A stretch of DNA of 62,214 bases, filler included, from Candidatus Woesearchaeota archaeon (lineage in GTDB: Archaea > Nanobdellota > Nanobdellia > Woesearchaeales > GCA-2687795): NCBI GenBank assembly GCA_030753365.1. It is 5 parts of 5 records of this genome, joined end to end, with 100 filler letters (N's around TTAATTAATTAA, not from the genome) between each part and the next. Parts side by side here need not be neighbours in the genome. Positions count along the whole stretch, not along the records: positions 1 to 24,254 come from JASMCJ010000007.1; 4 more parts are not named here. One strand, 5' to 3'. The notes under the pieces were generated by a model. That model was given only the letters and a program-made list of their open reading frames with translations, made no database searches and was not told the origin of the DNA. The translations under genes were made by a program, and so were the position numbers. How positions within the stretch are numbered: the stretch's first letter is position 1; each line of letters opens with the position of its first letter. Below, one piece after another: positions 410 to 24,254 of the stretch.

Positions 410-482
410 AGCGAAGGGAGGGACTCGAACCCCCGAAAAGTCGCTCTGCAGGCGACCGCCGTAGCCGCTGGGCCACCTTCGC
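410..482 (-). tRNA. tRNA-Cys(GCA), intronless
   Basis: Reverse complement GCGAAGGTGGCCCAGCGGCTACGGCGGTCGCCTGCAGAGCGAC...GGTTCGAGTCCCTCCCTTCGCT folds as a cloverleaf; U73 discriminator. Confidence 0.95.
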
Positions 483-1027: not shown

Positions 1028-3655
1028 ATGGCACTAACAACCGTCCAAAAGCACAAACTAAAGAAATTCGTAAAAGAACTTGAATCATATAGGGGCCGCC
1101 ATACAGAATTAGTCTCAGTCTACATCCCTCAGGGTTATGACATCAACAAAATAATCAACCATCTCTCACAAGAACAAGGCACAGCCACAAACATAAAATC
1201 AGCATCCACAAGAAAGAACGTAATAGACGCTCTGGAAAAGATGATCCAACACTTAAAATTATTCAAGAAAACACCTGAAAATGGTTTGGCAGCTTTTGCA
1301 GGCAACGTTGCAGCAAGGGAAGGCCAGCAGGACTTCAAAGTATGGAGTGTAGAACCTCCAGTCCCCTTAAAAACCAGAATCTATAGGTGCGACAAAGAAT
1401 TCGTTCTTGACATCCTAAGAGATTTGATGGAAGTAAAAGAATTATATGCTCTGGTAGTAATAGACAGAAGAGACGCAAACATAGCATATCTAAAAGGGAA
1501 AACCATTGTGCCAGTGCTAAAAACCCATTCACAAGTCCCAGGAAAATTCAAAGCAGGCGGCCAGTGTCTTGTAAAAGGCTCTTTAGTCCAATTATCTAAT
1601 GGTTCTCTTCCTAAAATTGAAATTGTTCATAATCCACATATTGTAAAATCAGTTATGATTAAAAACAATTTTTCAATAAAGGAATCAAATATAACAGGCA
1701 AATGGAATGTAAAAAAAGATAAGGTTTACAAGATTATAACAAAAAATCCTCGTATTGAAGTTGAGTCCTCCAAAGATCATGTTTTCTTTGTTGCTTCTAA
1801 TGATAGCATTAAAGAGAAATCTGCTGAAGAACTAAGGGAAGGAGACCATTTAATCATGCCTGAAAAGGTAAGTATAAAAGGAAATATACAAAAATTAAAT
1901 TCAAAAAAATACTATAATTCTTTTATCATAAATAAAAAGGGGCAGGAATTACTAAAGAAGAAAAGAGAGGAAAAAAATTTACTACAAAGAGAACTAGCGA
2001 AACAAACTAATATGACACAAACAACAGTATCATATTATGAGATTGGAAGGAACAATCCAAATAAGGATTATTTAGAAAGACTGTGTAAAAAGCAGCAAAT
2101 CAATTATAGAGAATTTTTGAAAAAATACGCCAAATCAAGCCCCCACCAAGGTTCTGATGTAAGATTGTCAGATACACTCAACGAAGAACTTGCTCAGTTT
2201 CTTGGTTATTTTATGGGAGATGGCTGTATAGAAACCGATAGAATTACTTTTTTTGAACAAGATAGACAAGTAGCCCTAAGTTACAAAAACAAGTATGATA
2301 AATTTTTTCATATAAACTCAAGTTATAAATTCAGAGAAAGTAAAAATCATCATCAAATCAGATTCACGAGCAGGCCTCTGGTAAGATTAATCAAGGAAGA
2401 ATTTCCTGAGATCAAAAAAGCCCTTGATTCAGAAGTTCCCAATAAGATATTAGAATCTTCTGATAATGTTGTTGCATCCTTCTTAAGGGGGTTCTTTGAT
2501 GCAGAAGGTTATACTACATATTCAAGAAAACAGGTTGCTTTAGGCATTAATAATAAAAGGATAATCCAACAACTACAACTAATTTTCCTGAGATTTGGCA
2601 TAATCAGTTCTTTACACGAATATGACAACAGAAGGAATATGTATAGTAATAATCCCCGGTTTACTTTGGATATAACCGAAAAGAAATCTTTAGAACTTTT
2701 CAAGAGATATGTTGGTTTTACTTCTAATATAAAATCTAAGAAATTAAGTACAATCATTAAAACAAAATCTGATACCAGTTATGTTAGACAATTAATAGTG
2801 CCAGGAAGAGAAATAAGGGAAATAATAGAAAAAGCTGGCTACAATCTACAATTATTCCCTAAAGTAACTAATTTCTTTAGAAATGAACGAATGATGAGCA
2901 AACAAACTTTTAAAAGCTCAATACTGGACTATGTCAAAGATAAAAAACTTTACAAACAATTAGAAGAAATCTATAATTATCCAATTCTCCCAGTTAAAAT
3001 AAAAGAAATCAAAATTACCAACAAACCGACAGAAATGATTGACATCTCAGTAAAAAATCAAAACTTCATTGCAAATGGTATAATTGTACATAATTCAGCA
3101 GCAAGATTCTCCAGAATAAGAGAAGGCGCAATCAAAGACCACTTCAAAAAGGTTGCAGAGCATATAAAAAACGAATTCCTTGGCAACAAAAATCTAAAAG
3201 GTATCATAGTCGGAGGTCCTGGCCCTTCAAAATATGACTTTGTAAACAGTGACATAATCACAACAGAACTCAAAAGAAAAATCATAGCAATCAAAGACCT
3301 ATCCTACACCGGCGAATTCGGTCTCCAGGAATTATTAGACAAGTCAGGAGACGTACTAGCCAAAGAAGAAGTAATGGACGAAAAAAACATCATGACAAAA
3401 TTCTTTGAAACCCTATCAAAAAAGCCCGGCATGGTATCCTATGGAAAGAAAGAAGTAATGGAACAGCTAAAGAACGGCACAGTTGAAACCTTATTATTAT
3501 CAGAAGAACTGGACGAAACAGAAATAGAACAGTTTGAGGAAGAAGCCAAAGCAGTAGGAACAGAAGTCAAAATAATCTCCACAGAAACAAGAGAAGGCGC
3601 CCAGCTAAGAGACATGAGCATGGTAGGCGCTATCTTAAGATATGATGTAAGTTAA
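1028..3655 (+). CDS. prf1: Peptide chain release factor aRF1, intein-containing (about 365 aa after splicing)
   Basis: NIKS, YRCDKEF and GGQ motifs; true start MALTT at 1028. Confidence 0.95.
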   Translation: MALTTVQKHKLKKFVKELESYRGRHTELVSVYIPQGYDINKIINHLSQEQGTATNIKSASTRKNVIDALEKMIQHLKLFKKTPENGLAAFAGNVAAREGQQDFKVWSVEPPVPLKTRIYRCDKEFVLDILRDLMEVKELYALVVIDRRDANIAYLKGKTIVPVLKTHSQVPGKFKAGGQCLVKGSLVQLSNGSLPKIEIVHNPHIVKSVMIKNNFSIKESNITGKWNVKKDKVYKIITKNPRIEVESSKDHVFFVASNDSIKEKSAEELREGDHLIMPEKVSIKGNIQKLNSKKYYNSFIINKKGQELLKKKREEKNLLQRELAKQTNMTQTTVSYYEIGRNNPNKDYLERLCKKQQINYREFLKKYAKSSPHQGSDVRLSDTLNEELAQFLGYFMGDGCIETDRITFFEQDRQVALSYKNKYDKFFHINSSYKFRESKNHHQIRFTSRPLVRLIKEEFPEIKKALDSEVPNKILESSDNVVASFLRGFFDAEGYTTYSRKQVALGINNKRIIQQLQLIFLRFGIISSLHEYDNRRNMYSNNPRFTLDITEKKSLELFKRYVGFTSNIKSKKLSTIIKTKSDTSYVRQLIVPGREIREIIEKAGYNLQLFPKVTNFFRNERMMSKQTFKSSILDYVKDKKLYKQLEEIYNYPILPVKIKEIKITNKPTEMIDISVKNQNFIANGIIVHNSAARFSRIREGAIKDHFKKVAEHIKNEFLGNKNLKGIIVGGPGPSKYDFVNSDIITTELKRKIIAIKDLSYTGEFGLQELLDKSGDVLAKEEVMDEKNIMTKFFETLSKKPGMVSYGKKEVMEQLKNGTVETLLLSEELDETEIEQFEEEAKAVGTEVKIISTETREGAQLRDMSMVGAILRYDVS
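1565..3094 (+). mobile_element. Intein (510 aa) with XRE-type HTH and LAGLIDADG homing endonuclease
   Basis: GGQ|CLVKGSLV ... NGIIVHN|S junctions; block B SSKDHVFF; LGYFMGDG and LRGFFDAEG motifs. Confidence 0.95.
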
Positions 3656-3747: not shown

Positions 3748-3948
3748 ACTTCATGGGTTTAATTCCCTGTTGCTTGCAACGGCTGGATTAAAACATGAAG
3801 TTTAAAAATACCTCACAGCTTGCTGTGATTGGAATTTTTATTAATTATTTAGTTTGGGTTTTATACCCCGATGCTTGCATCGGCTTAATACGCAAACTAA
3901 ATACTAAAAATACCCCGCAGCTTGCTGCGATTGGGATTTTTTATTAAT
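3748..3948. repeat. Tandem ~100-bp unit, four GC-TT-GC palindromic hairpins in total
   Basis: GTTGC-TT-GCAAC, TCACAGC-TT-GCTGTGA, CCGATGC-TT-GCATCGG and CGCAGC-TT-GCTGCG, each preceded by an ATACCCC-like motif. Confidence 0.8.
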
Positions 3949-5729: not shown

Positions 5730-7289
5730 TCAATCAATTCTAAAATCAACGCAGATCCTAAACACACCCGGAGAAAACTGTCCGCACTTAACCGTTCTAA
5801 GAATCTTAAACTTCATCTTGTTCCTCTTGCACGCCTCATTAATCTTATCATGAGCTTTTCCAAACTCCTTCTCATTAAGAAAATCATAAAAATGAATCAC
5901 ACTCTTTTTCTTAGAACAAGCCAATGCGCAATCCAGAAAATCCTCCGCAGACTTAGGCAAAGGCATAACAATCCTGTCAAAACACTTCTTAAACTTCTTA
6001 AGATACTTCCATGACGAAATCATCTCTTCAGCCTTTATTTCATCTATGCTTCTTATTTCCACAATCCCCTTAGTCACCAAAGGCAAAATTTTTTCCAACT
6101 TAATAACAGACTTTTCATTAATCCTTGAGCCATGCACATCATTCTTATAATCACTAATATGAAAATAAGTATTGCAATATTTTTGTATATCTTCTATAGC
6201 TTTAGCCATAGAATCAGGCGAATAATTATGCAGCAAATGGCATGTATCAATACACACATTTCTTATTCCTGCTGCCTTAACAACATCAATAATCTCCTCT
6301 TTAGTCTTAATCAGGTTCCTATGAGAATGTTCAAAATAAATATTCTTATAATACTTCTTAAAAGTTTTTGCATTAGCTATAACATCTTTCTTCTCAGCAC
6401 CCTGTGACGCTCCCATAGAAAAATGAACAATCAATTCAACTCCAAACTCATCAACAAGCGAAACCATCTTTCTATAAATCTCATTCTTTATATTAGTATT
6501 AGCCATATCAAGCCCTGGCGAAAAAATATGCGGCTGATGCACAACCACAAACATACCAGAATCAACAAACTCTTTGACATCTTTTCTAAGGTCCTCAAAA
6601 TTCACATCAAAATCAGACTCAAACGTATGAATCTCAATAATTGAAGGATTACATTCCAGGCGTGAAGCCATCTCATCTTTTATCACAGCACTCTTAAGTC
6701 CAATCATCTTCTGATAAAAAACAGGCACAGCCTTCTTAACATCATCATTAATCAGAAAAACATTAGCCAGCTTATTCAACCTAACACTCTCCATCCCGCA
6801 CCTATGCGCATCGGGATTAATCTCAATCCCATAAACAAACTTAGCCTTAGAATTCTTTGCGATAACCAGAGGATAAATTCCACACCCAGAAAACATAACC
6901 AAAACATCTTCACCAGCTTTAATCTGTTCATAAATCCTCTTCCTCTCAGTACTCAGCCTAGAAGAAAAATAAACCTTCTCAACATCAATCTTAACCCTCA
7001 CATCATTCTCCTTATGAACAGTCTCCTTCCTATTCTCCCCAGCCAGCACCTTCATCTTCTGTGTCCTGAAAACACCCTCATGCATCCCAGCCTTCTTGCA
7101 AACCACCTTAACATTCTTAAGCAAAACCAGCAAAGCATCCGCAATAATCTTCTCCTTCTTAACCAGCTCATCAGGAATCTCAATAATAGCAATATCTCCT
7201 ACAAGGTCAAAAGCAGCCCTAAGATAAGAAAACTCCTTCTCTGTCAGCTTTCCCTTCAAAGCCCCCCTCAACGTAGTAGGTTTTTTCAT
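5730..7289 (-). CDS. trm5: Trm5/Taw2-family tRNA methyltransferase with inserted TIM-barrel-like domain
   Basis: FDLVGDIAI, VYFSSRLSTER, VLVMFSGCG, FDRIVMPLP; ~240-aa insert. Confidence 0.8.
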   Translation of the reverse strand: MKKPTTLRGALKGKLTEKEFSYLRAAFDLVGDIAIIEIPDELVKKEKIIADALLVLLKNVKVVCKKAGMHEGVFRTQKMKVLAGENRKETVHKENDVRVKIDVEKVYFSSRLSTERKRIYEQIKAGEDVLVMFSGCGIYPLVIAKNSKAKFVYGIEINPDAHRCGMESVRLNKLANVFLINDDVKKAVPVFYQKMIGLKSAVIKDEMASRLECNPSIIEIHTFESDFDVNFEDLRKDVKEFVDSGMFVVVHQPHIFSPGLDMANTNIKNEIYRKMVSLVDEFGVELIVHFSMGASQGAEKKDVIANAKTFKKYYKNIYFEHSHRNLIKTKEEIIDVVKAAGIRNVCIDTCHLLHNYSPDSMAKAIEDIQKYCNTYFHISDYKNDVHGSRINEKSVIKLEKILPLVTKGIVEIRSIDEIKAEEMISSWKYLKKFKKCFDRIVMPLPKSAEDFLDCALACSKKKSVIHFYDFLNEKEFGKAHDKINEACKRNKMKFKILRTVKCGQFSPGVFRICVDFRID

Positions 7290-22687: not shown

Positions 22688-24254
22688 ATGCCAGCCTTTG
22701 AGAAAAAAAAAGAGGCCTTTTCTTATGATATATTAAGAGAAGGAGAAGATGTAATTCTTAGAATAGACTGCGAAGCATACACAAGAGTTCCTTCTCTTGA
22801 AGATGATGAAACATCAATGTCAAAAACCATTGACATTCTTAGTGAAGCAAGCGGTGTTAACAAAATTATCTTTATTCAAAAAAGAGACTATGAATATGAC
22901 ACCTTCCAGGCTGAAACCCTTGCTGAGATTGCAAGAATCTATAAAATGCTTGTAAAACAGAAAATAATTAATTACTATTCTATCACAGACCCTGCAAAAT
23001 ATGCAGAACTCCAGAATATCTTATTCAGCCTCCTTAAAAAAGATCCTTTAGGCGCTTATGTTGAAATAAGAAGAATATTGAGAAGAGAAAAGATTTTTCT
23101 CACAAGAACGCAAAACCCTACTCTAATATCAAGCATCAAGAAAATCATCTCTTTATTGGAATATGTATCCAAACTACTTGATGGCACAAAGCTAATCAAA
23201 CTAATGAGCAAACAGTTAGCAGGCTACAAAATTGGCGATAGGTCATTATACTCAAAAGTATTCAGTCCTGCAGTAAAGCCTGACTTTATTTTCACCAGGC
23301 TCATGGCAGCTTATCCCAAAGAAGGTGAAGAATTAGACGCCTACCTTGTAGGCAACACAGAAGTCACAATCTTTAACATGCCTGATGACATCCAGCCCCT
23401 CTATCATATAATCCCTCCTGAATTCAAGCTCTCTGAAGATAAATATGAGATAATAGATGCTGCAAGAAGAATCATGTCTGAGCACAAGCCCAAAAAGAGC
23501 GAATTCGTTGACCCTGAAAGAATGAGAGAAGTATTCTTCAATGTAGGCCATGACCTCATAGAAGAGCTCTCCTCATACAGAAACATAAGGCTAAGAGCAA
23601 AAGAAGTTGACGAACTTACAAGAATACTTGTAAGATACACTGTAGGCTTTGGTCTTATAGAAGTGCTCCTTCAGGATGAAAAAGTGCAGGACATATCAAT
23701 AAACTCTCCTATGGGCGAACTCCCTATCTTTATTGTTCAGCAGGACTTTGGCAACTGCAAGACAAACATCATGCCCACAATGCCAGAATCAGAATCCTGG
23801 GCATCAAAGCTAAGAATGCTCTCTGGAAGGCCGCTTGATGAAGCAAACCCAATCCTAGACACAGAAATAAAAATCCCTGGCGCAGCCGCAAGAACTTCCA
23901 CTCTCACCGAGCCTTTATCACCAAAAGGATTATCATTCTCTTTCAGAAGACACAGAGACAAGCCATGGACACTCCCCTTATTCATAAAAAACAGAATGAT
24001 AAATCCTCTTGCTGCTGGTGTGCTAAGCTTCCTCATAGATGGAACAAGAACATTCTTTATCTGCGGAACAAGAGGCTCAGGTAAATCATCTTTTCTAAGC
24101 GCCTGCATGCTTGAAATCATGAGAAAATATAGGTTGATAACACTTGAAGATACCTTAGAGCTGCCATTCAGCGCCTTCAAAAAGTTAGGCTTCAACATGG
24201 TACAAATGAAAGTAGCAAGTGCGCTTGCCCATGAATCAAGCGAGTTCACAGCAA
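22688..24254 (+). CDS. Type II/IV secretion (VirB11/CpaF/FlaI-like) ATPase, truncated by contig end
   Basis: GRPLDEANPILD, Walker A GTRGSGKSS, TLEDTLEL. Confidence 0.9.

Follow-up and report, generated by a model that had tools for sequence, protein, structure and literature searches.

A predicted class 1 intein directly after the catalytic GGQ of the archaeal release factor aRF1, probably a selfish homing element

Does an insertion of 510 amino acids (aa) in the catalytic loop of a translation release factor serve its archaeal host, or mainly its own spread? The question is raised by the gene of release factor aRF1 in the genome of a Candidatus Woesearchaeota archaeon, GCA_030753365.1 (G000; 0.9 Mb, 94.5% complete, 78 contigs). 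The analysed stretch of 62,214 nucleotides (nt), called the window, consists of the contigs C7, C11, C12, C13 and C18 joined by N spacers; gene neighbourhood past position 24254 is therefore not real. The aRF1 gene is located at positions 1028-3655 on the plus strand and encodes 875 aa counted from the ATG. Sequence analysis confirmed a predicted class 1 intein inserted exactly after the catalytic Gln of the aRF1 GGQ. With a probability of roughly 85%, the element is a self-splicing intein which likely spreads selfishly by cutting empty aRF1 genes.

A single open frame of 875 codons spans exteins and intein. Translation of positions 1565-3094 yields 510 aa with CLVKG as first and IIVHN as last residues (precursor residues 180-689), flanked by GKFKAGGQ on the N side and SAARF on the C side. 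A sequence-only reading of the locus had placed an intein at this position, and the junctions were found as claimed, along with a Hint domain and the splicing residues. Pfam assigned Intein_splicing (E 3.6e-21), LAGLIDADG_3 (E 1.1e-19) and HTH_3 (E 3.4e-11) to the insert, all above cut-off, in agreement with the two LAGLIDADG motifs and the XRE-type helix-turn-helix (HTH) proposed earlier. The Hint domain (PF14890) reached 76 bits against a cut-off of 35.8, TIGR01443 was also above its cut-off, and PF14528 (LAGLIDADG) gave 70.9 bits. The two LAGLIDADG motifs read AQFLGYFMGDG and ASFLRGFFDAEG. Among 120 alleles, the best-scoring of 724 hits, Cys1, Ser69, His72, Asp493, His509, Asn510 and the +1 Ser are invariant, and all 120 share the same junctions; the site is written GGQ/S below, the slash marking the insertion point. 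His72 and Asp493 are the His of intein block B and the Asp of block F; position 69 of block B is Ser rather than the usual Thr in 120/120 alleles. The acidic residues of the nuclease are present in 119 (Asp219) and 120 alleles (Glu/Asp314), and Arg134, Gln141, Gln152 and Glu159 of the HTH in 117-119. An AlphaFold model based on an 89-row alignment had a mean predicted local distance difference test (pLDDT) value of 88; its leading Foldseek matches were TliVMA 7qss, PI-PfuI 1dq3, TliVMA 7qsu and aRF1 4af1. The G+C content is 0.295 in the intein, 0.399 in the exteins and 0.358 in the genome.

Removal of the 510 aa leaves exteins of 179 and 186 aa, together 365 aa. The earlier expectation that this restores an aRF1 of about 365 aa was borne out by the genome G027 of the same genus. 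Its intein-free 365-aa allele is collinear with the exteins and aligns without gaps, with 303/365 identical residues (156/179 before the site, 147/186 after). Two genes downstream of aRF1 are common to both genomes, coding for Phe-tRNA synthetase beta and a Trm5-like protein. Relative to G027, the G000 exteins are under strong purifying selection: the proportions of nonsynonymous differences (pN) are 0.06 and 0.12, those of synonymous differences (pS) exceed 0.8. The whole protein scores 384.5 bits with NCBIfam TIGR03676 (aRF1; cut-off 234.7), Pfam recognizes eRF1_1, eRF1_2 and eRF1_3 besides the insert domains, and the aRF1 hallmarks are all present: eRF1 domains 1-3, NIKS, YxCxxxF and GGQ (Table 1).

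Table 1. Predicted features of the interrupted aRF1 gene, in positions of the window.
Feature	Positions	Strand	Match or remark
aRF1 N-extein, 179 aa, stop-codon-reading N domain and start of M domain	1028..1564	+	eRF1_1
NIKS motif	1190-1201	+	within N-extein
YxCxxxF motif	1382-1402	+	within N-extein
GGQ codons; catalytic Gln is the intein -1 residue	1556..1564	+	
Intein, 510 aa, Cys1...His509-Asn510	1565..3094	+	Pfam, sequence
N-terminal splicing (Hint) region: Cys1, Ser69-x-x-His72 (His72 at 1778-1780)	1565..1864	+	
XRE/Cro-type HTH, intein residues 126-185, optional in the family	1940..2119	+	HTH_3
Double LAGLIDADG homing endonuclease, intein residues 206-395	2180..2749	+	LAGLIDADG_3
LAGLIDADG motif 1 (Asp219)	2192-2224	+	
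LAGLIDADG motif 2 (Glu314)	2474-2509	+	
Basic helical accessory domain, intein residues 396-470, between endonuclease and C-terminal Hint region	2750..2974	+	
C-terminal splicing region: Asp493 (3041-3043), His509, Asn510	2975..3094	+	TIGR01443
aRF1 C-extein, 186 aa and stop; +1 Ser, Arg at +4 (GQxxxR), rest of M domain, C domain	3095..3655	+	eRF1_2, eRF1_3

Mobility of the intein is indicated by its distribution on the host tree and by conflicts between intein and extein phylogenies. A quick extein tree of 67 rows, with 40 empty alleles chosen partly as relatives of carriers, placed G000 as sister to the intein-free G027 (support 99). The 15 full-length carriers on this tree require 13 changes; shuffles had a mean of 13.6, and 214/500 were as low. 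In 112 of the 120 alleles, 17 of the 43 strong splits in the intein tree are contradicted by strong splits in the extein tree, compared with 0/24 and 0/26 in controls of odd versus even columns. The pair P0058/P0092 shares 91.1% identity in the intein and 57.3% in the extein, the pair P0073/P0078 58.9% and 92.9%, respectively. The congeners G008 and G212 differ at 18 of 1509 intein nt versus 100 of 1077 extein nt (Fisher p 6e-23); their inteins are 98.8% and their exteins 91% identical, and synonymous divergence (dS) amounts to 0.03 in the intein versus 0.97 and 0.32 in the exteins. The nearest flank differences are located at -22 and +6, consistent with a transfer that occurred recently and involved little co-conversion. 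For G000, the acquisition is undatable, because the nearest inteins are 66-72% identical. Two motifs with acidic residues, empty alleles and signs of horizontal spread have thus been found, as for an intein-encoded LAGLIDADG homing endonuclease.

Stages of decay are present as well. The 67 distinct complete alleles in the genome samples comprise 43 with HTH and nuclease, 9 with nuclease but without HTH (one borderline), 1 with half a nuclease and 14 mini-inteins; none has an HTH without nuclease. Mini forms of 131-145 aa thus occur besides full and degenerate forms, and the series matches the homing cycle laid out in PMC8966425.

The aRF1-site intein was found in 28/281 order genomes with aRF1 (about 10%; hand count). 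Among the 300 other genomes of this census, 19 were without detected aRF1, 245 with matches at E <=1e-104 were counted as uninterrupted, and the 36 with intermediate values were inspected, of which 28 contained an intein at GGQ/S, 6 were empty, 1 had the site off the contig and 1 was frameshifted at the site. The 28 carriers comprise 14 inteins of 486-509 aa, 4 shortened forms (275-472 aa), 1 truncated where its contig stops and 9 mini-inteins (133-145 aa). Unpublished genomes in the census are the carrier G112 and the uninterrupted G273, G205, G132, G209, G244, G121, G182 and G207; they contribute to the census count alone, and none is included in the trees. In a sample of the phylum, 23/201 genomes (G000 included) had an intein match at E 1e-30; 10 matching genomes belong to other orders of the class, 9/10 with the intein at the aRF1 site. 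Homologues among the 724 hits are labelled Woesearchaeota or Nanoarchaeota, and automatic JGI names read 'eRF1/intein/homing endonuclease'. Of the best 150 hits in a 50%-cluster library, 63 are flanked by aRF1 sequence. The inteins of other aRF1 alleles are 37-72% identical to the G000 intein.

A junction-pattern scan of GTDB contigs gave at least 119 matches, and 53 among the matches listed are aRF1 GGQ/C junctions; the pattern requires GGQ-C, and absence elsewhere is not inferable from it. The aRF1 junctions listed are labelled Woesearchaeota, Pacearchaeota, Nanobdellota, Iainarchaeota (3), Aenigmatarchaeota (3), Nanohalarchaeota (2) and unnamed archaea. Three further labels among the matches listed, Methanosarcinales, are probably wrong, because the N-exteins are 70-73% identical to that of G000. 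Records of the aRF1-site intein span four DPANN phyla. Viruses as carriers were rejected: viral contigs yielded no relative, either by protein (none of 45 pattern hits was confirmed) or by junction pattern (0/9 aRF1). In one aRF1 (L109, G275:C21), about 28 nt are missing right after the GGQ codons and the frame is shifted, either through an assembly error or as the trace of a repair event where the intein is predicted to cut. Besides the intein at the GGQ site, P0209 (residues 124-367) and P0224 contain another one at a second aRF1 site, immediately preceding the Cys of YxCxxxF.

The following mechanism is proposed. The 875-aa precursor would splice constitutively on the class 1 route, rejoining Gln179 to Ser and yielding a normal 365-aa aRF1. 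This route involves an N-S shift at Cys1, a transfer to Ser+1, the cyclisation of Asn510 and an O-N shift. Before splicing, the precursor would be unable to act, as a 510-aa protein is attached to the catalytic Gln loop, which must reach the peptidyl-transferase centre (PMC6514570). The Gln would become methylated once splicing has taken place and not earlier, since the C-extein contributes the Arg of the GQxxxR methylation motif; Arg is found at +4 in 120/120 spliced forms and in 0/120 precursors. Mtq2 methylates the Gln of archaeal aRF1 (PMC6144793), and the consensus of the mouse methyltransferase is GQX3R (PMC7708063). An Mtq2-type gene is present in G000 (145 bits), while a search for Trm112 gave a marginal match only (22.1 bits on a 309-aa frame). 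Termination was claimed earlier to depend on splicing, and this dependence is likewise predicted here, because no second aRF1 was found in the 94.5%-complete genome; the other match was a 366-aa pelota-like protein. The freed intein would cut the uninterrupted GGQ/S site and then be copied in by repair, with the HTH assisting DNA binding for homing and not serving the host. GGQ/S may be a favoured insertion site owing to its high conservation and to the lethal effect expected of imprecise loss; therefore, splicing would be retained after nuclease loss, as in the mini-inteins.

Several points weigh against a selfish, self-splicing intein. Splicing, cleavage and expression are all steps predicted from sequence, and no RNA is listed among the public runs holding the stretch. 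The conservation of residues is biased to intact copies because the 120 alleles are the best-scoring hits. Mini-inteins cluster on the host tree (8 minis need 5 changes, 1/500 shuffles as low) and thus persist vertically; selfish homing accounts for this persistence solely via the difficulty of precise loss. An empty-site contig, with a joint skipping 1565-3094, was not seen in 8 runs with this DNA, although run contigs show the presence of the intein and not the absence of an empty allele. Between G000 and G270, the ratio of nonsynonymous to synonymous divergence (dN/dS) is 0.11 for the intein and 0.18 for the HTH, rough values with dS near or at saturation. Finally, the trees are quick or FastTree runs, and metagenome-assembled genomes may include chimeras.

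The sequence-only reading had suggested that conditional splicing acts as a switch, with Gln as the -1 residue. As a domesticated element, the intein would hold an inactive aRF1 precursor until needed, in response to redox, salt, temperature or host contact. G000 has a sole aRF1 copy as far as found, the insertion blocks the catalytic loop as well as the methylation motif, mini-inteins persist in some lineages, and conditional splicing has been reported for other inteins (PMC5874633). Dependence on splicing is no evidence of regulation, however, because any intein in an essential site imposes such dependence. About 90% of the order genomes and the sister genome G027 are without intein, the intein has moved horizontally in repeated events, and its nuclease is kept intact. 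The pairing of Cys1 with a nearby extein or +1 Cys, a feature of redox traps (PMC5874633), is missing by sequence position: there is no Cys pair at the junctions, the +1 residue is Ser, and Cys occurs in the precursor at 121, 180, 353 and 400 only. The -1 residue varies in the family; Gln is not required, since Trp, Phe and Met occur. Blocked termination would moreover stall ribosomes on every mRNA, presumably a costly way of regulation. A switch is therefore unsupported and considered improbable.

Even less probable is a homing element whose XRE HTH acts as transcription regulator, the excised intein binding an operator, e.g. upstream of aRF1, and limiting its own supply or regulating host genes. 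The HTH matches the phage repressor families phrog_3 and phrog_8 (E 2.9e-10), and its Arg/Gln/Gln/Glu pattern is conserved as stated above. It is also an additional domain, because the intein has a second accessory domain. A retained regulator is at odds with the 67 complete alleles, where an HTH never occurs without nuclease but the nuclease occurs 9 times without HTH. HTH-like accessory domains of TliVMA and PI-TkoII change homing specificity (PMC8966425), and the same HTH is found in related inteins whose hosts are DHH and beta-lactamase-fold proteins. A bacterial-type scan, uninformative for archaea, detected no promoter or terminator upstream of aRF1, and no operator search went beyond it.

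An artefact of assembly, or a pseudogene with a dead insert while a working aRF1 lies in an unassembled part of the genome, is conceivable at 94.5% completeness and 78 contigs, but hardly credible and largely refuted by the uninterrupted frame, the extein selection and the junctions identical in all 120 homologues. In addition, the stretch is present in 20 public runs of 16 studies, almost all with a marine label. Of these runs, 9 are flagged as possible sources, and in an unflagged one a single, independent contig covers 792-3812 with 3 differences.

The element has relatives of known structure. TliVMA and PhoVMA from the V-ATPase A of Thermococcales (7qss, 7qsu, 7qst; PMC8966425) represent the best match by sequence (E 1.6e-13) and by structure (E 3.5e-23; template modelling score, TM, 0.77 by target). 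They share the class 1 domain with Cys1 and His-Asn and the nested double LAGLIDADG, and active and decayed forms occur at one site, as for the aRF1 intein. An accessory domain follows the nuclease and precedes the C-terminal Hint region in TliVMA, as in the G000 intein. In contrast, their host site is the ATPase P-loop instead of aRF1 GGQ/S, the identity in the structural alignment is just 15-16%, and the G000 intein contains an extra XRE HTH ahead of the nuclease. PI-PfuI from Pyrococcus furiosus (1dq3; sequence E 1.3e-12, structure E 7e-21) also combines Hint, double LAGLIDADG and extra domains, but resides in another host, is 18% identical and shorter (454 aa).

Conserved motifs of essential translation proteins likewise harbour the inteins of archaeal aIF2/IF-2 (15 cases, PMC4760082), eukaryotic eIF5B and ThrRS (PMC5784728); an NCBIfam model of intein-bearing IF-2 was the top intein match of the G000 intein. 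These hosts are GTPases or synthetases, unlike the release factor aRF1. The nearest relatives outside aRF1 are uncharacterised DPANN inteins in RadA, MCM, DHH-family and beta-lactamase-fold proteins with 26-32% identity over the full length, some of them with the same HTH. They occupy other hosts and sites and are far more distant than the aRF1 alleles.

No description of an aRF1 intein was found in the literature searched, as judged from listings, with InBase and subscription journals outside reach. The term 'release factor' is absent from the main text and two of three supplementary files of PMC4760082 (file 1 not covered) and, by term search, from PMC10710043, PMC5784728 and PMC5874633 (survey supplements not covered); 'intein' is absent from PMC6514570 by term search. 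The assumption that aRF1 is uncommon as intein host holds for this literature, but not for public sequences, hundreds of which carry one. The intein is an ordinary kind of element in an apparently unreported host protein. Few inteins have been reported in core translation components (PMC4760082), and the value of this case lies in an apparently undescribed host and insertion site, the catalytic loop that acts in translation termination. Since it is abundant and all stages of the homing cycle occur in four DPANN phyla, the intein marks DNA exchange among uncultured DPANN archaea. Alleles with and without HTH, mini-inteins and four different -1 residues provide a natural set for probing the HTH function.

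Some aRF1s deviate from GGQ. In family f138 of G331 (L277-L297; another order of the class), the 21 loops read among 27 genomes are GGW (8), GGF (4) or GGQ (9). All 12 W/F alleles continue with Ser-Gln and form one clade (support 95, motif columns excluded) beside GGQSQ relatives; each W/F genome shows this aRF1 only. The 50%-cluster set contains 32 representatives in which both junctions could be parsed; in 13 of them, the residue in place of the Gln is W (5), M (5) or F (3), each time with Ser-Gln after it. GG[W/F/M]SQ aRF1s are P0149, P0162, P0165, P0175, P0178, P0181, P0182, P0186, P0197, P0198, P0200, P0202, P0208 and P0213. Intein-free GG[W/F]SQ variants score above the TIGR03676 cut-off as full canonical aRF1. 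The variant loop corresponds to the GGxSQ form of the aVLRF1 and acVLRF1 families, whereas classical aeRF-1 has GGQ (PMC6514570); G000 aRF1 differs from both families by its plain GGQ.

A clear Mtq2 match was obtained in 5/5 GGQ genomes of f138 (97-146 bits) and in at most 1/5 W/F genomes (87 bits, at cut-off), a comparison of one evolutionary event with two of the five W/F genomes below 90% completeness. The Mtq2-type methyltransferase has apparently been lost in the W/F clade. The association of variants with the intein is biased, because the intein itself served as query in the search that detected the variants. Homing pressure might have reshaped GGQ in heavily invaded DPANN lineages, with GGQSQ arising first, then a change of the cut-site Gln to Trp, Phe or Met, catalysis two residues on, a dispensable Gln methyltransferase and the intein following; this is a doubtful scenario. 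Escape from homing as cause of GG[W/F]SQ was rejected: 6/12 W/F alleles (the other 6 empty) and 4/9 Q alleles are invaded, so that no protection is visible. If the GG[W/F/M]SQ variants are active, the universality of GGQ needs revision, whatever the cause.

The surroundings of the aRF1 gene contain further features. A tRNA-Cys gene (410-482, minus strand) is located upstream of a NUDIX gene and aRF1. The Trm5-type tRNA methyltransferase at 5730-7289 (minus strand) contains an inserted xylose-isomerase-like TIM-barrel stretch (residues 227-387, below cut-off), while its orthologue in G027 comprises 274 aa without this stretch. A 105-nt A+T-flanked element with two predicted hairpins at 3841-3945, part of which is repeated at about 3805-3840, has no match in Rfam and is present in 21 copies at >=95% identity in the 0.9-Mb genome. 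Its appearance suggests a miniature mobile or repetitive extragenic palindromic (REP)-like repeat that has spread recently. Further inteins of G000 are located on the contigs C1, C10, C25/C56, C35 and C38. Their hosts, named from the sequence, are GyrB, GyrA (two or more), a Cbf5/TruB-like pseudouridine synthase, a HerA-like ATPase and the small subunit of replication factor C (RFC).

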